This document shows positions 5,285-50,857 of a stretch of 64,000 bases of DNA, piece by piece (positions within the stretch are counted from its first letter, which is position 1; every line of letters begins with the position of its first letter). The stretch lies in the sequence record MN850590.1; one strand, written 5' to 3'. Below the pieces are notes generated by a model. The model did not search any database and was not told where the DNA came from. It worked only from the letters and a program-made list of their open reading frames with translations. A program made the position numbers and the translations under genes. This DNA comes from Escherichia phage moha.

Positions 5285-7498
5285 ATGATTATTGAAACGG
5301 CTAAAGAAACGATTATTGGTTCAGGCGGTAAGAGCACAGCATTCACTATTCAAGGCAATAGCAAAGTTTATAAGATTTTGTCTAATGACCTTTATACAAA
5401 CAAAGAATTGGCTTGTGTACGTGAATTAATCACAAACTGTATCGATGGACAAATTCTTAATGGTTGCACTGATAAGTTTATTGTTCAGGCTCCAGGTCGT
5501 TTAGACCCACGTTTTGTAGTTCGAGACTTTGGTCCTGGTATGAGTGATTTCACCATTCGAGGTAATGACGAAGAGCCAGGAATCTATAACTCATATTTTG
5601 CTTCAACTAAAACATCGAGTAACGATTTCATTGGTGGATTCGGACTCGGCTCTAAAGCTCCATTAGCATATACCGATACGTTTAACCTTACGTCTTATCA
5701 CAACGGTGAAGTTCGTGGTTACGTAATCTACCAAGATGACACTGGTCCACAGATTAAGCCAACCTTCGTAGATAAGATGGGTCCTGATGACCGGACCGGC
5801 GTTGAAGTAGTTGTACCGGTTAACCCAGAAGATTTTGAAAAGTTCGCATCCGAAATTGCATATGTTATGCGTCCTCTAGGTGATATTGCAGAAGTTCGCG
5901 GTGTTAAAGATATCAAATACTTTCCTGAATTCGATGATGTTTATTTAGCCAAGGAAGCTCCATGGGGTGAACGTGGTAATATCATGGCTGTTTATGGTGG
6001 TATTGTATATCCAATCGGAAGTGTTATTAAAGAACAAACATGGATGATGACGCGATGCACTACAGCTTATATTAAATTCCCTATGGGTGAACTAGATGTA
6101 GCCCCGTCTCGTGAAGCATTGTCATTTGATAAACGTACAGTAGCAAATATCCATAAACGCGTTGCAGAAATCGATGCTAAATTGTTCGCTGAAGATTCTA
6201 AGAAATGGATTGATTGTAAATACCCACGTCATGTGTTCCGTGAAATTGATTCTCTTGGCTATACCGCTCGTAAATACATGGAAAAGGCTGGGTCTAATAT
6301 TGAATCACTGAAATACTCTAAAGAACAACTAACTTATTCCGAGTTGTACAAACGTTTTAAAATGGGACCCGAATGGTGCAACCTTGGCGTTGTATATGAT
6401 ATCGTTTCAGACCCACGACTTCGTCGTATTCGTGAAAGCGGAAGCTCGTCTGCAACTATTTCAATTAATAGCCTGCTAGGTATTAGTCGTAAGCATATTG
6501 ATATCGTTATTGACGATGTGAAAGGCCGCGTACCAATGATGCGTGCTCTGAACGATGCTTTGACTTCCACCGATGCATCAACACTCGTTGATAAGGTTCC
6601 TTCCGGATGGGGTAGTAGCGTATTATTCATTAACCCGGAAGATGAAGTTGCAATGAAACTTCTGGAACGATTAAAGGTTATTTTCGCTGGTGATAGCCTT
6701 AAATTTTATAAGACCTCTGAAATTCTTGCATTAGTTAAACCATGGATTGAAGTTAAAGAACGTTCATCGCAGCCTCGTCCTAAATCCCCAAGTGCTCATC
6801 GGTTCTTTAAGAATGAAAACGATGTTTGGGTATCGGAAGATCTCTTTATTCCAGCGAGTGAAGCTGGTGAAATCCAAGGTTATGCTATAGTTCGTAATCG
6901 TTCTAATGCTGAATGTCTTGACGCAGATAAAGGTTGGTTGAACTATGACTCTAATTTCTTGACCCGTATTGCTGATTTGTCAGATATTAAAGAGTTCACT
7001 GTAGTCCGTCCACAGATTGCTAAGAAAGTTCGTAAACTTGGTGAAGTAGAATGCTTGTTCGAAAAATCAATTAATGACTATATTACGCTAATCGATAAAG
7101 TAGATTATGATGAGTATGTATCACCAAGTCGTAGAGCACAGCCCTATCTAAACCATATTACTCGTAATGAAGAGCTTAACTTCCTTAGTAAGTATTTTAG
7201 CTCTAAGAACAAAGAAATCAGTAAAGATTTTGCAAAACTCTCCACAGTAAATAATCGCTGGGGATGGAATCGATTCGCAGGTGCTACTAATACAGACCTG
7301 AATAAGAAGTTAGAATTGTGTGCTAAAATTTTCGATAAGCTTAAAGATAATGCTTACGATAATGATGATAAAATGATTATTGAATTCGAAACCAATTATC
7401 ATATTGTGTCAGAATACATGGGACGACGTGGTACTCTTTCAAAAGAACAGGTCGCTCAAATCGTTAAATTCATGAAGGCCGTGGAAGCGGCCAAATAA
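5285..7498 (+). CDS. rIIA: rIIA protein (membrane-associated, GHKL-type ATPase fold)
   Basis: 737 aa (T4 rIIA 725 aa); followed by rIIB; recalled similarity to T4 rIIA. Confidence 0.9.
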   Translation: MIIETAKETIIGSGGKSTAFTIQGNSKVYKILSNDLYTNKELACVRELITNCIDGQILNGCTDKFIVQAPGRLDPRFVVRDFGPGMSDFTIRGNDEEPGIYNSYFASTKTSSNDFIGGFGLGSKAPLAYTDTFNLTSYHNGEVRGYVIYQDDTGPQIKPTFVDKMGPDDRTGVEVVVPVNPEDFEKFASEIAYVMRPLGDIAEVRGVKDIKYFPEFDDVYLAKEAPWGERGNIMAVYGGIVYPIGSVIKEQTWMMTRCTTAYIKFPMGELDVAPSREALSFDKRTVANIHKRVAEIDAKLFAEDSKKWIDCKYPRHVFREIDSLGYTARKYMEKAGSNIESLKYSKEQLTYSELYKRFKMGPEWCNLGVVYDIVSDPRLRRIRESGSSSATISINSLLGISRKHIDIVIDDVKGRVPMMRALNDALTSTDASTLVDKVPSGWGSSVLFINPEDEVAMKLLERLKVIFAGDSLKFYKTSEILALVKPWIEVKERSSQPRPKSPSAHRFFKNENDVWVSEDLFIPASEAGEIQGYAIVRNRSNAECLDADKGWLNYDSNFLTRIADLSDIKEFTVVRPQIAKKVRKLGEVECLFEKSINDYITLIDKVDYDEYVSPSRRAQPYLNHITRNEELNFLSKYFSSKNKEISKDFAKLSTVNNRWGWNRFAGATNTDLNKKLELCAKIFDKLKDNAYDNDDKMIIEFETNYHIVSEYMGRRGTLSKEQVAQIVKFMKAVEAAK

Positions 7499-7507
7499 GG
7501 AAACATT

Positions 7508-8455
7508 ATGTACAATATCAAATGCTTGTCCCAAGAAGAACAGTTAGAAGCTTACGGCCTGGTTGAATCAGGCAAATGGACTCGTAAAGAAATTGCCGAT
7601 TACTTCGACATTTCAACAGATACTCTTCGTAAGATTGTTAAGAATTTTAAAGCAGAAGGCGTTGTCCCTGAAGCAAACGATGCCTCTTATGTAATCGAAG
7701 AAGTTCCAGAAAATGATGAACCTATTATCGGCGGCCATCGTCCTGAAATCGTATGGAACGCGTCATCTAAATTTATTTCAATTATTGAAGGACGCGTAGC
7801 ATACAATGCGACTCCATCAAGTCATGCAAATTTTGAAGAAATTAAAGCTAATCTGGTCGCAGGAAACCTTAGTAAAGCTGTCGAACTTATTAACATCAAG
7901 AAAGCTATTAGTAAGTTTGTTGACGGTAATGTTGTTATTGAAGGTGGTAGTTTATTTTATCAAGGTATAGAAATTCGTTCAGGACTGGTTAATCGTATTA
8001 TTGATTCCATGGAAAAAGGCGAAGACTTTAAATTCTATCTGCCGTTCCTTGAAAACCTGTTAGAAAACCCAAGCGAAAAAGCTGTACAACGTTTATTCGA
8101 CTTCTTGGTTGCAAACGATATTGAAATCACTGAAGATGGTCATTTCTATGCGTGGAAAGTAGTTCGTAAGGACTATTTAGACTGCTATAGTGGTACATTT
8201 GATAACTCCCCAGGTAAAGTTGTTTCAATGCCTCGTACTCGAGTTAACGACGATGATACTCAAACCTGTTCTCGCGGTCTCCACGTTTGTGCTAAATCTT
8301 ATATTCGCCACTTTGGTTCAAGCTCAGATAAAGTTGTGAAAGTTAAAGTTCATCCACGTGATGTTGTATCCATCCCGGTTGACTATGGTGATGCTAAGAT
8401 GCGTACATGTCGTTATGAAGTAATTTCAGACGTTACTGAATTATTTGCAGAATAA
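7508..8455 (+). CDS. rIIB: rIIB protein
   Basis: 315 aa; N-terminus MYNIKCL and C-terminal region match recalled T4 rIIB; followed by GGGGAC-UUCG-GUCCCC terminator. Confidence 0.9.
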   Translation: MYNIKCLSQEEQLEAYGLVESGKWTRKEIADYFDISTDTLRKIVKNFKAEGVVPEANDASYVIEEVPENDEPIIGGHRPEIVWNASSKFISIIEGRVAYNATPSSHANFEEIKANLVAGNLSKAVELINIKKAISKFVDGNVVIEGGSLFYQGIEIRSGLVNRIIDSMEKGEDFKFYLPFLENLLENPSEKAVQRLFDFLVANDIEITEDGHFYAWKVVRKDYLDCYSGTFDNSPGKVVSMPRTRVNDDDTQTCSRGLHVCAKSYIRHFGSSSDKVVKVKVHPRDVVSIPVDYGDAKMRTCRYEVISDVTELFAE

Positions 8456-8460
8456 TAATT

Positions 8461-8483
8461 GGGGACTTCGGTCCCCTTTTTTC
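8461..8483 (+). terminator. intrinsic terminator after rIIB
   Basis: GGGGAC-TTCG-GTCCCC then TTTTTTC. Confidence 0.7.
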
Positions 8484-8496
8484 TTTAGGGGTAATT

Positions 8497-8784
8497 ATGA
8501 TTCATCCATTTGACGTATCAGAATCCAAAATCGCTAATCTTCGTGGCCATCATAAATGTAAATCAGTGTATTGCGCTAAATTGGTAAAACACCCAGGTGA
8601 TGCACACTATGGCTGGTTAGAATGTGACGAAGTTGTTATTGAAATCCCACCGGTAGATGCAGAATATCTTGAAGAAGGTGACCGCATTTATTTTGGCGAA
8701 CTACACATTAGAGGTATCTATGGTAAAGACGAACTTGGGACTGTTGAGGCTGAAGAGTCTTCCGACATTTATCCTGTCGAATGA
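8497..8784 (+). CDS. hypothetical protein
   Basis: 95 aa ORF after rIIB terminator with AGGGG RBS; protein-like composition. Confidence 0.5.
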   Translation: MIHPFDVSESKIANLRGHHKCKSVYCAKLVKHPGDAHYGWLECDEVVIEIPPVDAEYLEEGDRIYFGELHIRGIYGKDELGTVEAEESSDIYPVE

Positions 8785-8800
8785 GTTTTTGACTAGCGAA

Positions 8801-9277
8801 ATGAAGGTTAAGATCGCTGATACTGCTCGGTACTCGTTGAAACAAGATCCAGGTCAAATAAAAGAAGACGTTGTTCGACGTTGTAAGGTTGCAGTCTTTG
8901 CAGAGTATGTAGTAGCAAATTGGCTAGACGGATATGTTAATAAAGGTAATGAAGACGTAGAAGACCCGTACACGTATGCATGGGACGTTTTAGCTCATCC
9001 TAAGTACTGTGGTCTACGCGTAGAAGTAAAGACCCATCAGATGGATTCGAAATGGATTTCGGTTACCACAGGATACGGTGGTGATTATCCGGGTGGCAAC
9101 GGAATAAACATAGGGCCCTTCCTTAATCATCGAGTCGCTGACTGTATTATTATATTGAATGTCAAAGAAACCTCACCTGACGTCTTCTCTTATTCTATAA
9201 AGTTTGTGGGAGACCATGAAGACCTAAAGAAAATCGTCCGCAAGAGCAACTACAACGGGTGGTATCTTCATCTTTAA
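8801..9277 (+). CDS. hypothetical protein (T4 denB-position; identity unconfirmed)
   Basis: Listed ORF 8657..9277; N-terminal 48 codons look out-of-frame-like and overlap the upstream ORF, so start placed at ATG 8801 (159 aa). Confidence 0.45.
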   Translation: MKVKIADTARYSLKQDPGQIKEDVVRRCKVAVFAEYVVANWLDGYVNKGNEDVEDPYTYAWDVLAHPKYCGLRVEVKTHQMDSKWISVTTGYGGDYPGGNGINIGPFLNHRVADCIIILNVKETSPDVFSYSIKFVGDHEDLKKIVRKSNYNGWYLHL

Positions 9278-43182: not shown

Positions 43183-43551
43183 ATGAAAATCAATCTGAAC
43201 TCATACATCAAATGTAAAGACCACGACGGTTATAAAGCTATCGAAATTAAAGAATTCCAGTGGATGTTATACAAAGAGCAATTTGAGTTCGTAGGTTGTA
43301 TGACCCCTGAAGGTCCTTCAGATGATTTCTCTTGGAAAATTGTGTTAGCAAACTTTTTCACAGGTGACACATATGAATTAAAAACTATTATTACCGGTAA
43401 AATTCGTTCAGAAACATATGTTGACGAAGAAACTGGTTACTCTGAAGATGTTACATGGTATCAAAATGGACGCATTACAGCAGATAACCTGATCGAAAAA
43501 ATGAAAGCCAAAGGTGTTTTAAATTTAGACAATTGGATTAAAGTTGCATAA
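43183..43551 (+). CDS. hypothetical protein
   Basis: 122 aa ORF after early promoter, GGAGA RBS. Confidence 0.55.
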   Translation: MKINLNSYIKCKDHDGYKAIEIKEFQWMLYKEQFEFVGCMTPEGPSDDFSWKIVLANFFTGDTYELKTIITGKIRSETYVDEETGYSEDVTWYQNGRITADNLIEKMKAKGVLNLDNWIKVA

Positions 43552-43991: not shown

Positions 43992-44026
43992 ATTAATTGG
44001 GAGCTTCGGCTCCCATTGAGGAAATT

Positions 44027-44641
44027 ATGTTTAAAGTTAATACTTTTTATAAAATGAATTTTAAAAATGGGGATATTACTCCACGCCTTAAAAACATGTT
44101 CTCATATGACCTTATCGAGCCTTTTGAAGTTTTAGAAGTTACTGATGCCGGCTCGGTTTGTGAAATTAGAACTTCTGAAGGTAAAATTTATCAGGCCGGT
44201 GTTGGTAAATTCAGTAATTGTTTTACTTTAATATTCTCGACCGATTTAGATGAGCATTTTATTGAATGTCCTAACCCTAAGGTCTATGAAGTTCCACATC
44301 AAGAAACTAAGAAAAATGGACCGCACGAATATACGAAGGTTGAAACTCCTCACGGCGTGATGTGGCGACATAACTCTCCTTTTGGAAGTAAAGGAACATT
44401 TGCTCAACTGGCTAAGCCCTACGACGATGAAAAATATGTAGTAGTCCTTTTATCTGAACAGGGTACTCAAGACCGTGGATGCCAGCGTTCCGGTTTATTG
44501 AGTGAACTCGAAGCTCATAACCTAGCACGTGAATTCGTTGAGAAAAATCCTGGTTCTGAAGCTCTAGTCATGAAAGCAATTACTCAATATATCACTGCTC
44601 AACCTGTTGTTCATCCGGTAGAAATTAATTTCATTAAGTAG
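44027..44641 (+). CDS. hypothetical protein
   Basis: Listed 43997..44641; start moved to ATG 44027 (GAGGAA RBS), since 43997 lies inside the upstream hairpin. Confidence 0.5.
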   Translation: MFKVNTFYKMNFKNGDITPRLKNMFSYDLIEPFEVLEVTDAGSVCEIRTSEGKIYQAGVGKFSNCFTLIFSTDLDEHFIECPNPKVYEVPHQETKKNGPHEYTKVETPHGVMWRHNSPFGSKGTFAQLAKPYDDEKYVVVLLSEQGTQDRGCQRSGLLSELEAHNLAREFVEKNPGSEALVMKAITQYITAQPVVHPVEINFIK

Positions 44642-44695: not shown

Positions 44696-44893
44696 ATGAA
44701 ATTTTTAATAGCACAAACAGTCCAATTAAAAGGTGTTGGAATCCCTGGGATGATTTTTAAAGTTCTCAACGAATTTAAAACTGCCGCTGGAATTATCAAT
44801 GAAGCGTATGCTGTTCAATGGGTTGATGGGACTTCTGACATACGTATGGGTAAAGAGTTATCTCCTATTAAAGGGTTGAAACATGTTGAATAA
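44696..44893 (+). CDS. hypothetical protein
   Basis: 65 aa ORF. Confidence 0.45.
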   Translation: MKFLIAQTVQLKGVGIPGMIFKVLNEFKTAAGIINEAYAVQWVDGTSDIRMGKELSPIKGLKHVE

Positions 44894-45101
44894 ATTAATC
44901 CAGAAATTGTTTGGTACGGAAATGATTGAAGTTACTTATCGTGTAACCGACGTTTTTCCATATTACGCGGAAAACCGTTTAGAACCATACGTTACGTCAA
45001 TTAAAATGCCTAAAAATGACAGAAATTTATCTATCGAAGACCGTATACCTGGATACGGACATTGGGCTGATGTTGAAATTATAAGTGTTAAAGATGTCTG
45101 A
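44883..45101 (+). CDS. hypothetical protein
   Basis: 72 aa ORF. Confidence 0.45.
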   Translation: MLNKLIQKLFGTEMIEVTYRVTDVFPYYAENRLEPYVTSIKMPKNDRNLSIEDRIPGYGHWADVEIISVKDV

Positions 45102-45552
45102 ATTAGAAATAAGAAGTAATTTCAAATGGCCGTCATGTGCATTAAGTAACTTTGCTCAATGGCCTTTTGTTATGGATGGTATTCAATTCGGAGGTCTTGA
45201 AGGATTTCTCCAAGGATGTAAGGTGAAAAATGTTGAACAACAAAGACGTATATTTGGGCTGTCAGGACTGGCCGCACAGCAAGCTGGAAGGTCTTATGCA
45301 AGAGCTCAGGACCGTGGGACTCTCTTCTGGTTAGGAGTTCCATTTTCAAGATACTCTGAAGCGTGGAAAGAATTATACACAAATGCATATTTTGAAGCCG
45401 CGATCCAAAACAAGGGGTTTCGTGATGCCTTACAAGCCTCTAAAGGAAAAATTTTGAAGCACAGCATGGCCAGCCACCTAACAAAAGATGATACAATATT
45501 AACCGAAGCCGAATTTATTGATGTGTTAAACCTATTAAGAGACTCTTTATGA
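45085..45552 (+). CDS. NADAR / YbiA-like (DUF1768) protein, T4 30.3-position
   Basis: 155 aa; LSNF...DG...AW..LY motifs resembling YbiA/NADAR family. Confidence 0.55.
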   Translation: MLKMSELEIRSNFKWPSCALSNFAQWPFVMDGIQFGGLEGFLQGCKVKNVEQQRRIFGLSGLAAQQAGRSYARAQDRGTLFWLGVPFSRYSEAWKELYTNAYFEAAIQNKGFRDALQASKGKILKHSMASHLTKDDTILTEAEFIDVLNLLRDSL

Positions 45553-46373
45553 AGCCTACTATTTTGACTGATATTGATGGTGTATGTTTAAGCTGGCAAT
45601 CTGGACTTCCTTATTTTGCCCAAAAATATAACCTTCCATTAGAACATATTTTAAAAATGATTCAGGACGAAAAATTTATTTCTCCTGGTAAACTGTTCAA
45701 TACCGACGATAACCTTGGTAAACAATTAATAGAAAAATATAATAGCTCTGATTTTATTCGTTACTTAGCGCCTTATTCTGATGCTCTTCGAGTTATCAAT
45801 AAACTAAAAGAAGACTATAATTTTGTAGCCGTGACGGCGCTAGGTGATTCAATTGATGCTCGATTGAATAGACAATTTAATTTGAATGCTTTGTTCCCAG
45901 GCGCTTTCTCTGAAGTAATGATGTGTGGTCATGATTCTTCAAAGGAACAATTATTCGAACTAGCTAAAACAAAATATAACGTGATTTGTTACGTTGACGA
46001 TTTAGCTCATCATTGTGACCATGCAGCAGAAATTCTTAATGTACCGATTTATTGGTTGGCTCGTGGTGAACGTGATGCCATTCCTCGTACTGCACAACGT
46101 GTACACACGTGGGATGATATTGAATCTCGTTTGGTTCTGCCTAAGAATAATTCAGATTCAGATCGTGAAGACCTTTTAAAACGATTGGCGGATTTGCTTA
46201 AAGAATCTGGTGCAACAAGCCCAGGTGCATGGCCTAATCAAATTGGTGGCCCCTCGACAACACGTACTCCATATACCTGGCGAACCCCAGGACCAACTGA
46301 TATGCAGCCGTGGTGGACGATTCAAAACTTTCCTTTAGATTCGTCTAAATGGACTTGGTCTATAAATTGTTAA
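45549..46373 (+). CDS. HAD-superfamily phosphatase-like protein, T4 30.2-position
   Basis: 274 aa; N-terminal DIDGV (DxDG) motif; unusual Pro/Trp/Thr-rich C-terminal tail. Confidence 0.55.
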   Translation: MKPTILTDIDGVCLSWQSGLPYFAQKYNLPLEHILKMIQDEKFISPGKLFNTDDNLGKQLIEKYNSSDFIRYLAPYSDALRVINKLKEDYNFVAVTALGDSIDARLNRQFNLNALFPGAFSEVMMCGHDSSKEQLFELAKTKYNVICYVDDLAHHCDHAAEILNVPIYWLARGERDAIPRTAQRVHTWDDIESRLVLPKNNSDSDREDLLKRLADLLKESGATSPGAWPNQIGGPSTTRTPYTWRTPGPTDMQPWWTIQNFPLDSSKWTWSINC

Positions 46374-46382
46374 GGGTTAATT

Positions 46383-46652
46383 ATGTTTGTAGTTCATGAT
46401 ATTACAGATGGCAAAAATACCACACGTGACTACGGTCACGTTAACATGTTCTTTCGAGACTGGCCATTGTTTCGTTCAGTAAAAGACGCAGAAATATTTA
46501 AAGAGTGTGTTGAACAAGGGTTCATCTACATTTCAGAATACTATGTTGAAGGACTCGGTAAATGGATTACAACTTATCAGAAAACGCTGAAATCGCTTCT
46601 AGATGAAGTGGCTTATAATAGAACCGTAACCAAAATCGAGGACATCAAATGA
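46383..46652 (+). CDS. hypothetical protein (30.1-position)
   Basis: 89 aa ORF. Confidence 0.5.
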   Translation: MFVVHDITDGKNTTRDYGHVNMFFRDWPLFRSVKDAEIFKECVEQGFIYISEYYVEGLGKWITTYQKTLKSLLDEVAYNRTVTKIEDIK

Positions 46653-48142
46653 TTTTAGATATTTTAAACCAAATAGCTGCGATCGGTTCTACTAAAACAA
46701 AACAAGAAATCCTTAAGAAAAATAAGGACAACAAATTACTTGAACGTGTGTATCGTTTAACATATGCACGTGGTATCCAGTATTATATTAAGAAATGGCC
46801 AGGACCAGGTGAAAGGTCTCAAGCGTATGGTCTTCTTGAATTAGATGACATGTTGGATTTTATTGAGTTCACATTAGCCACTCGTAAACTCACTGGTAAT
46901 GCTGCAATTAAAGAGCTCATGGGTTATATCGCTGATGGTAAACCTGATGATGTAGAAGTCCTTCGTCGTGTAATGATGCGCGACCTTGAAGTAGGTGCTT
47001 CAGTGTCTATCGCGAATAAGGTGTGGCCTGGACTTATTCAATTGCAACCACAGATGTTAGCATCTGCATATGACGAGAAATTGATTACTAAAAATATTAA
47101 ATGGCCCGCATTTGCCCAATTAAAAGCAGACGGTGCTCGTTGTTTCGCTGAAGTTCGCGATGATGGTGTTCAATTCTTTTCTCGTGCCGGCAACGAATAT
47201 CATGGTCTTACTCTATTAGCGGATGAACTAATGGAAATGACTAAAGAAGCTCGTGAAAGACACCCTAATGGGGTTTTAATCGACGGTGAATTAGTTTACC
47301 ATTCATTTGATATTAAAAAGGCTGTGAGCTCAGGAAATGACCTGTCGTTCTTATTTGGTGATAATGAAGAATCCGAAGAAGTACAAGTTGCGGACCGTAG
47401 CACTTCAAACGGTTTAGCAAATAAATCTCTTCAAGGGACTATTTCTCCTAAAGAAGCTGAAGGTATGGTTCTTCAAGCCTGGGACTATGTTCCTTTAGAT
47501 GAAGTCTATTCTGATGGCAAAATTAAAGGTCAGAAATACGATGTTCGTTTTGCTGCTCTTGAAAATATGGCTGAAGGCTTTAAACGAATTGAGCCAATTG
47601 AAAATCAGTTAGTTCGTAATCTTGACGAAGCTAAAGTGGTTTATAAAAAATATGTTGACCAAGGTCTTGAAGGTATTATCCTTAAAAACCGTGATTCATA
47701 TTGGGAAAACAAACGTTCTAAGAACCTAATTAAATTTAAAGAAGTTATTGATATCGCTTTAGAAGTTGTAGGATACTATGAACACTCTAAAGACCCTAAC
47801 AAATTAGGTGGTGTCGAACTCGTATCACGTTGTCGTCGTATTACAACCGATTGTGGTTCAGGGTTTAAAGATACAACTCATAAAACAGTTGATGGTGTAA
47901 AGGTTCTTATTCCTTTAGATGAGCGACATGATTTGGACCGTGAACGATTAATGACCGAAGCTCGTGAAGGTAAATTGATTGGACGTATTGCTGATTGTGA
48001 ATGCAATGGTTGGGTTCATTCTAAAGGACGTGAAGGCACTGTAGGTATTTTCCTCCCAATTATTAAAGGGTTCCGTTTTGATAAAACAGAAGCGGATTCG
48101 TTTGAAGACGTATTTGGACCGTGGTCCCAGACAGGTTTATAA
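46649..48142 (+). CDS. 30: ATP-dependent DNA ligase
   Basis: 497 aa (T4 ligase 487 aa); adenylation motif KADGARC. Confidence 0.9.
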   Translation: MILDILNQIAAIGSTKTKQEILKKNKDNKLLERVYRLTYARGIQYYIKKWPGPGERSQAYGLLELDDMLDFIEFTLATRKLTGNAAIKELMGYIADGKPDDVEVLRRVMMRDLEVGASVSIANKVWPGLIQLQPQMLASAYDEKLITKNIKWPAFAQLKADGARCFAEVRDDGVQFFSRAGNEYHGLTLLADELMEMTKEARERHPNGVLIDGELVYHSFDIKKAVSSGNDLSFLFGDNEESEEVQVADRSTSNGLANKSLQGTISPKEAEGMVLQAWDYVPLDEVYSDGKIKGQKYDVRFAALENMAEGFKRIEPIENQLVRNLDEAKVVYKKYVDQGLEGIILKNRDSYWENKRSKNLIKFKEVIDIALEVVGYYEHSKDPNKLGGVELVSRCRRITTDCGSGFKDTTHKTVDGVKVLIPLDERHDLDRERLMTEAREGKLIGRIADCECNGWVHSKGREGTVGIFLPIIKGFRFDKTEADSFEDVFGPWSQTGL

Positions 48143-48330
48143 TGAAAGCTTATTTAGAAACAGTTATTGTAGCTAAGAAGGATGGTGGAGATGTTTCCAC
48201 CTCTTGCTCTCAGATTATATTAGATTTTCCTAATGAAAATTCGTATCGGGTTTTCGTAGATAACGTTAATGGGTACGAAAAAGGCCCTAATTTTGAAGTT
48301 TATCGTACTTTGCTCCCGATTGTGGATTAA
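48142..48330 (+). CDS. hypothetical small protein
   Basis: Listed 48121..48330; ATG 48142 overlaps ligase stop (TAATG); followed by terminator hairpin. Confidence 0.4.
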   Translation: MKAYLETVIVAKKDGGDVSTSCSQIILDFPNENSYRVFVDNVNGYEKGPNFEVYRTLLPIVD

Positions 48331-48351
48331 GAGCCTTCGGGCTCTTTTTGG
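48331..48351 (+). terminator. intrinsic terminator before alt
   Basis: GAGCC-TTCG-GGCTC then TTTTTGG. Confidence 0.65.
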
Positions 48352-48385
48352 CATAAATATAAATTATTACTAAAAGGAAAACACT

Positions 48386-50473
48386 ATGTCTGAACAAATA
48401 AACGAAGTGTTTGAATCTGAAGGCAGTCTTCCTGTCGTCAATTTGAACCCTAAAGCTAAAGTTCCACAAGTCTGGAAAATTGGTGATATCGATACAAATA
48501 TTGTAGTTCGTTTATTCTCTTACCTTTCCGAAGGCGACGCTGTAAAACAAGTTAAACTTGGCGACAAATACGCTCATGTTGTTATTATGAGTCTGTCTGA
48601 AAAGGGTAATCTCGCTGAATTGAAAAATGGCCTTGGTCCTGCTCCTATTGATGCAATCAACACCATTTTCAATACAGTATATGAACAAGTTAAAGCTCTT
48701 CGTATGGATGCAGTTCTGTTCCGATTCCCTACCAAGAAATTGAAAGGACGTGGACAACAGCTTCAAACTCTTCTTGCTCGTTTAGTTTCTACTAAAACCG
48801 GTGGTCGTTTTAAAGTATTGTCGGCAATGTATCAATTCACAGGTAAACACACCTATGTGATGATGGTTCGTAAAAATGCCAACATTGAAGATATTAAAGG
48901 CATCCCTAACATTAACACAGAGTTGTACACGAAAGTAGATTCTGATGTTGGCGAAGTTTATGTGAGTAAAAAGACTGGCGAAACGGTTACCAAAGAAACT
49001 GCTATCGCTGGTTCTATTGCCGCGGTAGAAGAAAAACGTAAAGATAAGCCTGTTATTGCTCGCACCAAAATTTCTCGTCGTGCTATTGCAGCAAGTCAAT
49101 CTTTAGAAGCTGACCGACAAGAAGGTGAGTTATTCCAGAAATACGAAAATTCTGCTAAAGAAGTTAGTGGCCCAGCTACAGCCGAATTACTTCCTGAAGC
49201 ATATGAAATCGTACTAGCCCAAGCATCGTCCACAGCAAAAGGCACTTTAGTTGCTGATATCGAAAATAAGATTTATAATCGTATTGATGAATCCTTTAAA
49301 TTTGCTGATGAAGTTTCTTATGGTAGTGTTATTAAGCCGACTTTAGAAAAGTTTGCTAAGAAAATTAAAACCGAAAAAACAACATCTGTTAAAGCATTAG
49401 CTGCTTTTGTTGAAGCTGCAAATGAAATTGCAGACTCTATTAAAGACGAATGGTTTGAAGATTTTAGACGTGATAATTTCCAATTGCCTGACGACGTTTT
49501 AGCTGAAGTATCTGAAAGAACTTGGAAACAACGTAAATCAGCGTTCTTGTCTAATGTGATGTATACTTATGCACGAGAATCGGCTAGAGGCACCTTTAAT
49601 ATAACAATGAATCGGGACCCTAAACAATACTCTGTTGCTGAAAAACGAGCTATTCGCGAATATGCCTCTTCTGCGTATACCGATATCAATAATATGTTGT
49701 TAGGCCGGTATAAACCGGATTTTTATGATGTTGCAGATGAAGATGAAGTTAAACGCGCTATTGATGGTCTTGATTCGGCGTTTTTAAATGGAGACCGTTT
49801 ACCTGAAGGACTAACGTTGTATAGAGCCCAGTCTATCAGAATGCCTATTTACGAAGCAATGGTTAAAAATAAGGTATTCTACTTCAGAAACTATGTTTCT
49901 ACTTCATTAGCTCCTATTATTTTTGGTGGGTTTAAAGAGAACGTTGCCCTTGGACTTGCTCCTGAAGAAGTTCGCAAAGAGCTTAACATTGACAATAATG
50001 ACGAAGGTGTTACTATTTCTCCTAGTCAAGTAAGAACAGCTATGCATGCACCAGAACAAATCCGTGTTAACGTTGGATGGGCTATCGATGGCGCCCATAA
50101 AGTTAACGTGATTTACCCGGGTCAGTTGAGTAATCACCCTAATGAGCAAGAAATTATTTTGCCTAGAGGCATTCTCTTGCAGATAAATAAAATTACAGAT
50201 GCGTCATCTGACACTGGTGCAGGTTTAGAATCCAACCTTAAATTTATTCAAGCTGAAGTCATGTCCTCGGACCAGTTGGACGAAGCTGTCATTTACGATG
50301 GTGATGTTCTCATGGAAACAGGCGAGGTAGTTGCTATGACGGGTGAAATCGAATCAGATGAGCCGGTATCTTTTGCCTCATTTGTAGAAAAAACTAGTGC
50401 ACCTAAAGGTTTGAAATTGTTAGCATCTTTAATGGATTTAGAATCAGTTCCGTTTAAATTTATCCAAGGATAG
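48386..50473 (+). CDS. alt: ADP-ribosyltransferase Alt (virion-packaged)
   Basis: 695 aa (T4 Alt 682 aa); position after ligase and before gene 54; assignment by size and synteny. Confidence 0.7.
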   Translation: MSEQINEVFESEGSLPVVNLNPKAKVPQVWKIGDIDTNIVVRLFSYLSEGDAVKQVKLGDKYAHVVIMSLSEKGNLAELKNGLGPAPIDAINTIFNTVYEQVKALRMDAVLFRFPTKKLKGRGQQLQTLLARLVSTKTGGRFKVLSAMYQFTGKHTYVMMVRKNANIEDIKGIPNINTELYTKVDSDVGEVYVSKKTGETVTKETAIAGSIAAVEEKRKDKPVIARTKISRRAIAASQSLEADRQEGELFQKYENSAKEVSGPATAELLPEAYEIVLAQASSTAKGTLVADIENKIYNRIDESFKFADEVSYGSVIKPTLEKFAKKIKTEKTTSVKALAAFVEAANEIADSIKDEWFEDFRRDNFQLPDDVLAEVSERTWKQRKSAFLSNVMYTYARESARGTFNITMNRDPKQYSVAEKRAIREYASSAYTDINNMLLGRYKPDFYDVADEDEVKRAIDGLDSAFLNGDRLPEGLTLYRAQSIRMPIYEAMVKNKVFYFRNYVSTSLAPIIFGGFKENVALGLAPEEVRKELNIDNNDEGVTISPSQVRTAMHAPEQIRVNVGWAIDGAHKVNVIYPGQLSNHPNEQEIILPRGILLQINKITDASSDTGAGLESNLKFIQAEVMSSDQLDEAVIYDGDVLMETGEVVAMTGEIESDEPVSFASFVEKTSAPKGLKLLASLMDLESVPFKFIQG

Positions 50474-50531: not shown

Positions 50532-50825
50532 ATGAAATCTATGCTTCGCTTTAATGGTCAAGAACTAGTAGTTGAAGATGTTATCCCGGCAGATGATGTT
50601 TTTAACGAAGCTGTGATTGACGAATTGAATCGAGTATTCCCAGGTGCATTCCATATTGCTATGGAACCTCTTAAAAACTTTCGTGACCCTGAGCACACTG
50701 ATCAAATTTTTGTCGGTGTAGTGACAGGTCATTTAGAAACAGAGGTACCAATGGTCGTATTAGTTAAATACTCTAAAGATGATACTCCATTCCGAGCACC
50801 AGCATTCCTTTCATTCCGTAAATAA
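50532..50825 (+). CDS. hypothetical protein
   Basis: Listed 50493..50825; ATG 50532 follows GAGGAA RBS downstream of early promoter. Confidence 0.5.
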   Translation: MKSMLRFNGQELVVEDVIPADDVFNEAVIDELNRVFPGAFHIAMEPLKNFRDPEHTDQIFVGVVTGHLETEVPMVVLVKYSKDDTPFRAPAFLSFRK

Positions 50826-50834
50826 ACCCCTAAA

Positions 50835-50857
50835 GGGAGACAACGTCTCCCTTTTTC
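50835..50857. terminator. terminator hairpin between convergent + ORF and gene 54
   Basis: GGGAGAC-AAC-GTCTCCC then TTTTTC. Confidence 0.55.

Follow-up and report, generated by a model that had tools for sequence, protein, structure and literature searches.

Anti-DarT NADAR proteins of T-even phages

Gene 30.3 of bacteriophage T4 encodes AdfN (anti-DarT factor NADAR), so named by Johannesman et al. (Nat Commun 2025, PMC11825919), and the placement of T4 30.3 in the NADAR superfamily was, as cited in later papers, first made bioinformatically. As reported in PMC11825919, T4 and T2 deleted for adfN no longer plate on DarTG1, ectopic adfN rescues phage RB69 on DarTG1 (the E36A and K43A variants giving partial rescue only), and the purified protein strips ADP-ribose from DNA. 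In vitro, T4 NADAR hydrolyses ADP-ribosylated guanine (guanine-ADPr) but not thymidine-ADPr (as reported in PMC11125620), and cytidine-ADPr is described as not hydrolysed (PMC12945103). AdfN is presented as both necessary and sufficient against DarTG1 in Nat Commun 2025, in reports of 2024 and 2026 in Toxins, and in a T4 transposon screen; in the supplementary table of this independent screen, insertions in 30.3 are lost on DarTG1 (log2 fold change, log2FC, of -7.25). Here, the counterpart of this gene is described in Escherichia phage moha (record MN850590.1), within a window (the whole stretch of DNA analysed) of 64,000 nt, together with its neighbours, among them gene 30.2, which encodes a HAD protein, and alt, which encodes a mono-ADP-ribosyltransferase.

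In the proposed mechanism, the host DarT1 toxin would ADP-ribosylate guanines in replicating phage DNA, AdfN would cleave the N-glycosidic bond between guanine and ribose, releasing ADP-ribose, and phage replication would continue on DNA restored to its unmodified state. RB69 illustrates the opposite outcome: a T insertion in its gene leads to a premature stop and to the loss of the final 15 residues, which form the C-terminal helix required for full activity, and this makes the phage DarTG1-sensitive (PMC11825919). With its standard early-gene block, the window belongs to a T-even phage of the RB69/APCEc01 type. With high probability, its gp30.3 is an orthologue of T4 AdfN, a minimal NADAR-fold enzyme, of full length and with all catalytic residues, and adfN lies close to alt by inherited synteny.

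The gp30.3 protein of phage moha

Gene 30.3, or adfN, lies at 45094..45552 on the + strand and is predicted to encode a NADAR-fold DNA (guanine) ADP-ribosylglycohydrolase that is 97% identical to T4 gp30.3 over all 152 residues, with five substitutions (K11R, E89P, I120V, M125I and H128G). The open reading frame (ORF) extends from 45085 to 45552, but conservation does not extend to the GTG at 45085 (GCA in T4), whereas the ATG at 45094 is common to the window, T4 and RB69, and the protein is therefore of 152 residues and not of 155: the gene recognized in a preliminary description of the locus is real, and only the length given there has to be corrected. The RB69-type T insertion is absent, the C-terminal helix is intact (138-151 in the structural model), and the frame runs to ...EAEFIDVLNLLRDSL, as in T4. 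Given the 97% identity and the absence of the T insertion, gp30.3 would be an active AdfN, and the phage, unlike RB69, is predicted to be DarTG1-resistant. The alternative-frame internal ORF known in T4 as 30.3' (T4 6643-6870) was rejected as part of the locus: a stop codon in frame interrupts its equivalent at 45230-45457 (+), and an ORF thus not conserved is probably no real gene.

Gp30.3 is a NADAR-fold protein, and the NADAR/YbiA-type assignment that the preliminary description had made from its motifs is correct. A single-sequence phmmer search with gp30.3 against PDB sequences gave no match, and relatives were reached only through a profile of the family and a comparison of structures. 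The profile of 70 gp30.3 homologues matches E. coli YbiA (2b3w, E 0.007) over the catalytic SNF...E...K motif, and the 'LSNF...DG' of gp30.3 aligns with the YbiA motif FSNFAAWPIKVDG...E..FQ..K. By itself the window protein matches only Pfam PF08010 (Phage_30_3, E 1.9e-69), and Pfam NADAR (PF08719) is matched by 11 of the 70 family members, with a best E of 1.5e-7; NCBIfam offered nothing useful for gp30.3, 30.4, 30.5 or 30.1. The AlphaFold2 model of gp30.3 has a predicted local distance difference test score (pLDDT) of 93.5 and a predicted template modelling score (pTM) of 0.89. When it was compared with the PDB by Foldseek, the top three matches, and the only ones with a probability of at least 0.96, were YbiA (2b3w), a Phytophthora NADAR with ADP-ribose (PnNADAR, 8bau) and a Geobacter DarG1-type NADAR (GlNADAR, 8bat), everything beyond these three NADARs having E>2.

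Catalytic Glu and Lys residues have been reported seven residues apart (E36/K43 in T4 AdfN and E88/K95 in E. coli C7 NADAR; PMC11825919, PMC11543638), and a His in the last strand is given as the signature of phage NADARs, the YbiA clade having Glu and the DarG1 clade Asp at this position (PMC11125620, PMC11543638). The preliminary description took a lack of the NADAR catalytic residues as speaking against its reading; E36, K43 and H123 are all found in the window gp30.3 and are invariant across the 70 homologues, H123 sitting in strand 120-123 of the model.

Measured against T4, the ratio of nonsynonymous to synonymous substitution rates (dN/dS) is 0.043 for adfN and 0.03 for the essential gp31, compared with 0.12-0.25 for the neighbours of adfN, while dS itself is 0.59 for adfN and 0.61 for gp31. 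The possibility that adfN is a uniquely conserved island, resulting for example from a recent T4/RB69-lineage horizontal transfer, was considered and rejected: gp31, 30.9 and 30.7 form similar islands and dS is equal, and the pattern of adfN is therefore that of ordinary strong purifying selection.

A counter-defence role, also put forward in the preliminary description, has already been published for the 97%-identical T4 protein (DarTG1 sensitivity on deletion), from which it may be extended to the allele of the window. The experiments suggested there, a hydrolase assay on ADP-ribosylated DNA and the infection of DarT strains with a deletion mutant, have likewise been reported for the T4 protein, with positive results (PMC11825919, PMC11125620).

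Alt, gp30.2 and the neighbourhood of adfN

T4 Alt enters the cell along with the injected DNA and modifies proteins of the host (T4 record annotation). In the window, the virion-packaged mono-ADP-ribosyltransferase Alt (695 residues) is encoded at 48386..50473 (+), matches ADPrib_exo_Tox over residues 413-610 (E 6.6e-28), and is 92% identical to RB69 Alt and about 42-43% identical to T4 Alt. Its residues R479, S505-T-S (505-507) and E587-Q-E589 align with those of the T4, Acinetobacter and Providencia Alt proteins, so that the catalytic domain is intact and Alt is an ordinary R-S-ExE ADP-ribosyltransferase. This motif set is typical of arginine-specific protein ADP-ribosyltransferases, and the known target of Alt, Arg265 of the RNA polymerase alpha subunit, points to an arginine linkage. 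The alt gene of the RB69 reference (NC_004928, 5310-7397, minus strand) has a 1-nt deletion followed, 171 nt downstream, by a compensating 1-nt insertion (window equivalents 49798 and 49969), which puts 57 codons out of frame, spanning the catalytic Arg and the S-T-S. In RB69, alt and adfN are thus both affected by lesions, unless these are old sequencing errors.

Gene 30.2 (45549..46373, +) follows adfN directly, the stop codon of the one and the start codon of the other overlapping as ATGA, and encodes a protein of 274 residues (N-terminus MKPTILTDIDGV) made of a HAD core (approximately residues 1-200) and a variable, disordered C-terminal tail. The preliminary description had noticed here a HAD-like protein with a DIDGV motif, and gp30.2 is indeed a genuine HAD-fold protein, as borne out by four motifs in its 51 homologues (D8-I-D10-G-V, with D8 and D10 invariant; T96, near-invariant; K132 and D150-D151, invariant) and by Foldseek, which returned 122 HAD matches at E<=1e-3, all of the 50 listed being HAD-fold proteins or designs on that scaffold. 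In the AlphaFold2 model the core has a pLDDT >90, and the variable, disordered part comprises the last ~70 residues. Among the matches listed, the highest target-normalised TM-scores (0.63-0.69) are those of the 5'(3')-deoxyribonucleotidases 2jao, 3bwv and 4mum. Sequence similarity is faint: Pfam HAD_2 is matched with an E of 0.014, below the cutoff, the NCBIfam HAD match is sub-threshold, and NT5C (PF06941) is weakly matched by six of the 51 family members (best E 0.002) and not by the window gp30.2, the profile matching 2jao with an E of 0.18. Gp30.2 is a HAD hydrolase, most likely a phosphatase, which the structural model would place nearest to the 5'(3')-deoxyribonucleotidases. No paper on gp30.2 was found in a search of the literature.

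On the other side, gene 30.4 (44883..45101, +; 72 residues; phrog_2042, E 2e-35) has its stop 8 nt beyond the adfN ATG, the two genes overlapping; its product is 89% identical to RB69 gp30.4, and about 50-53% identical between T4 and the window/RB69-like phages. Whether each gp30.3 homologue is preceded by a small conserved partner gene was examined in KVP40 and in Acinetobacter, Aeromonas, Providencia, Klebsiella, Shewanella and Ralstonia phages, and the idea was rejected, as the upstream ORFs show no relationship to gp30.4 or among themselves.

The genomic context of the family was sampled in 10 annotated phage loci and 80 IMG/VR loci with gp30.3-family genes, which form 39 clusters at 80% identity, and whose flanks (5-10 kb where the contig allows) were scanned with hidden Markov models. 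An alt gene was found in the flanks of three of the 39 clusters, a ligase gene in seven and a gp30.2-type HAD gene in six, and 32 clusters had no HAD (5 kb where the contig allows). Where alt and 30.3 are both present, they are 2.2-2.9 kb apart, with two to four genes between them, and alt is on the strand opposite to the gp30.3 gene in Lazarusvirus. Other surroundings are varied: the gp30.3 homologue stands among tRNA genes in Jiaodavirus, Biquartavirus and Ralstonia phage RSP15, adjoins genes 47/46 in KVP40, and lies a few kb from rIIA/rIIB in Shewanella phage Thanatos-2. In KVP40, an NT5C-family HAD gene (8449-8961; PF06941, E 5e-11) lies directly downstream of the gp30.3 homologue and overlaps it, its product having no detectable similarity to gp30.2 beyond motif I; NADAR-HAD adjacency therefore recurs.

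In the T4 transposon screen, insertions in alt (log2FC -0.01), alt.1 (0.02), 30.1 (-0.01) and 30.2 (-0.12) are neutral on DarTG1, and so are those in modA and modB. Among the table rows examined, the only significant DarTG1 hit besides 30.3 is 30.4, whose insertions are mildly depleted (log2FC -1.79, adjusted p 0.014), probably because they affect adfN by polarity. Where the host lacks DarTG1, 30.3 is non-essential in T4 with an active alt, 27 of its 28 sites being hit, with read counts like those of the neighbouring genes.

Alternative explanations

Could AdfN act on marks that the phage itself sets? The preliminary description suggested a writer/eraser pairing with Alt, in which AdfN would reverse the ADP-ribosyl or RNAyl marks of Alt (or of ModA/ModB), tuning or confining them, which would account for the clustering of the two genes. 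Both indeed stand in one co-directional block without a strong terminator-like site between them, this block is conserved across Tequatrovirus, Mosigvirus, Gualtarvirus and Lazarusvirus, and the RB69 reference combines a truncated adfN with an out-of-frame stretch over the R and STS of Alt. However, R-S-ExE motifs, as a rule those of arginine-specific enzymes, are difficult to reconcile with a T4 NADAR reported as active on guanine-ADPr only; adfN insertions are cost-free in T4 with an active alt, those in alt, modA and modB do not matter on DarTG1, and alt is near the gene in few clusters of the family, and on the opposite strand in Lazarusvirus. Evolutionary rates are also uncoupled and very different, with 97% amino-acid identity to T4 for AdfN and 43% for Alt. 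In the paper passages searched, neither NADAR activity on protein substrates nor an assay of AdfN on Alt products was seen. Taken together, chemistry, genetics, context and rates therefore make the adfN-alt proximity, which was already remarked upon in PMC9503650, the inherited synteny of one phage lineage, and a pairing with Alt highly improbable.

A partner closer at hand would be gp30.2, either as the second enzyme of a two-step module, in which, for example, the NADAR protein would release modified guanine nucleotides or free them of ADP-ribose and the HAD protein would dephosphorylate the product or modified deoxynucleoside monophosphates, or as the T-even potentiator of AdfN. The ATGA overlap, an adjacency kept in several genera, the KVP40 NADAR gene overlapping an independent NT5C-family HAD in another genomic context, and the requirement of AdfN for a further T-even factor are all consistent with such a module, which is nevertheless very unlikely, given that T4 30.2 insertions at 71 sites are neutral on DarTG1 (p 0.61), that most gp30.3-family clusters have no HAD in the fetched flanks, and that the two genes are ~57 kb apart in Jiaodavirus. 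These same 71 neutral insertion sites led to the rejection, as the main reading, of gp30.2 as AdfN potentiator, and gp30.2 is not needed for the anti-DarTG1 function. More broadly, it is very unlikely that the T-even factor is encoded beside adfN, whether as the 72-residue gp30.4 or through a context-dependent partnership with the gp30.2 HAD; if it were, several genes of the block would together make up a small anti-ADP-ribosylation module, in place of a lone orphan antitoxin. Finally, the main substrate of gp30.3 could be soluble, such as an ADP-ribose-derived immune signal, an RNA-repair by-product or, as for YbiA, a riboflavin-pathway intermediate. Substrates of this type have been proposed for phage NADARs on contextual grounds (PMC9503650), YbiA is described as an N-glycosidase of riboflavin intermediates, and it is the closest Foldseek match of the window protein, but T4 genetics and biochemistry point to DNA guanine-ADPr and DarTG1, and the YbiA-defining Glu is replaced by His123, leaving a soluble main substrate with a minimal probability, although a soluble substrate may exist in addition to DNA.

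Several points have to be set against the preferred reading, that of an AdfN orthologue lying near alt through inherited synteny. The window protein differs from T4 AdfN at five positions, none of them E36, K43 or H123, and the function of this allele would be that of the T4 protein only by extension. According to PMC11825919, T4 AdfN fails to neutralise DarT1 in uninfected cells, and T5 and Bas25 are only weakly rescued by it, for which reasons its authors postulate an additional T-even factor; the need for this factor leaves the mechanism of AdfN incompletely understood. Lesions of both adfN and alt in RB69 would fit a pairing of the two genes, although this is a single case, and the recurrent NADAR-HAD adjacency illustrated by KVP40 still allows for some functional link to which the DarTG1 screen would be blind.

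The early-gene block and its surroundings

The gene order 30.4-30.3-30.2-30.1-30(ligase)-alt.1-alt-alt.-3, all on the + strand, matches the T4 and RB69 annotation, as did the T4 30.3/30.2/30/alt-like arrangement recognized in the preliminary description; the distance of about 3 kb given there between the NADAR gene and alt also holds, with 2.8 kb from the end of 30.3 to the start of alt. Downstream of 30.2 are gene 30.1 (46383..46652, +; DUF3045, Pfam PF11243, E 1.4e-26; 98% identity to RB69 gp30.1) and gene 30 (46649..48142, +), encoding an ATP-dependent DNA ligase of 497 residues (DNA_ligase_A_M, E 1.9e-26) that is 99% identical to RB69 gp30 and 64% identical to T4 gp30. They are followed by alt.1 (48142..48330, +; 62 residues), which matches the Pfam family PF24647 'Phage blade protein' (E 1.7e-28). 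Its start is the ATG at 48142 that overlaps the ligase stop and not the GTG at 48121: in the 69-residue ORF, residue 8 is the first to be covered by the PF24647 match, and alt.1 measures 189 nt in the T4 and RB69 annotation. Beyond alt, the rightward unit ends with alt.-3 (50532..50825, +; 97 residues, 98% identity to RB69 alt.-3), whose start was placed at 50532, the phrog_1739 match beginning at residue 14 of a 110-residue ORF.

A terminator-like hairpin of the intrinsic type (50832..50854, +), with a 10-bp stem followed by a T-run, was detected by a consensus scan and separates these rightward early genes from the leftward gene 54. In the same scan, no terminator-like site of comparable strength was found on the + strand between 43322 and 50831, which suggests that the block is co-transcribed.

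Over the 5.4-kb interval, identity to the Escherichia phages vB_Eco_mar005P1, JK42 and APCEc01 reaches 98-99%. Gene by gene, amino-acid identity is 89-99% to RB69 and, for most genes, 42-69% to T4, whereas nucleotide identity to T4 is strongly mosaic between 41900 and 50900, islands of 85-94% (gene 31, 30.9, 30.7, and 30.3 with the 5' end of 30.2) standing among stretches of 40-70%. Gene 30.8 (43183-43551) has diverged from RB69 too, with 60-77% nucleotide identity. The slot of T4/RB69 gene 30.6, ~450 nt upstream of adfN, is occupied by a 214-residue ORF (43997-44641, +; phrog_17531), for which Met11 is the probable start, giving 204 residues, and which has no match in Pfam or NCBIfam. This ORF was found in only 120 phage records, from Escherichia/Shigella phages and one Citrobacter phage, and its carriers include the known Mosigvirus-type isolates APCEc01 and HX01, the slot being a variable accessory one.

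Publications from 2012 to 2025 already cover the gene, the fold of its product, the enzymatic activity and the role against DarTG1, and the locus is ordinary and already explained. Its value is first one of annotation, as many 'hypothetical protein' labels in T4-like genomes could be replaced by 'AdfN, anti-DarT1 NADAR ADP-ribosylglycohydrolase'. It also bears on two questions: what is the T-even potentiator of AdfN? And what is the role of the widely conserved gp30.2 HAD hydrolase?

Comparison with known systems

Gp30.2 shares with the NT5C HAD phosphatases cdN/mdN a HAD Rossmannoid core, a helical cap and a DxDGV motif I, but sequence similarity to them is marginal, and gp30.2 carries in addition its variable disordered tail. 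Modules that associate an ADP-ribosyltransferase with its eraser (DarT-DarG, DarT1-NADAR, YarT-YbiA) differ from the block described here in that the adjacency of adfN and alt is not conserved across the gp30.3 family, and in that T4 has no genetic dependence on 30.3 while alt is intact.

Among NADAR proteins, E. coli YbiA (2b3w) is the best structural match of gp30.3 (Foldseek E 2e-5, TM-score 0.67) and has the SNF...E..FQ..K motif in common with it, whereas identity is 18% and the Glu of the YbiA last strand is a His in the phage clade; YbiA is moreover described as having a housekeeping role and as giving no protection from DarT1 (PMC11125620). The DarG1/DarT1-associated NADAR antitoxins (BC4488 family; 8bat) and PnNADAR (8bau), for which guanine-ADPr hydrolysis has been reported, resemble gp30.3 in fold and in the Glu and Lys placed seven residues apart. 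DarG1, however, has an N-terminal extension that gp30.3, reduced to the core, does not possess, and carries Asp at the position of the gp30.3 His; the phage protein is an orphan, no DarT adjoining it, and T4 AdfN is reported as unable to substitute for DarG1 in uninfected cells.

The closest relatives are the T-even proteins themselves. RB69 gp30.3, a natural loss-of-function allele, is 97% identical to the window protein over residues 1-137 and has the same Mosigvirus-type flanking genes, but differs by the T insertion removing its last 15 residues, which the window gene does not have. T4 AdfN (PMC11825919) has in common with the protein of phage moha E36, K43 and H123, the length, the C-terminal helix, and the neighbours 30.4 upstream and 30.2 downstream; it differs by the five substitutions and by its genome, which in the present case is RB69/Mosigvirus-like and not of the Tequatrovirus type.

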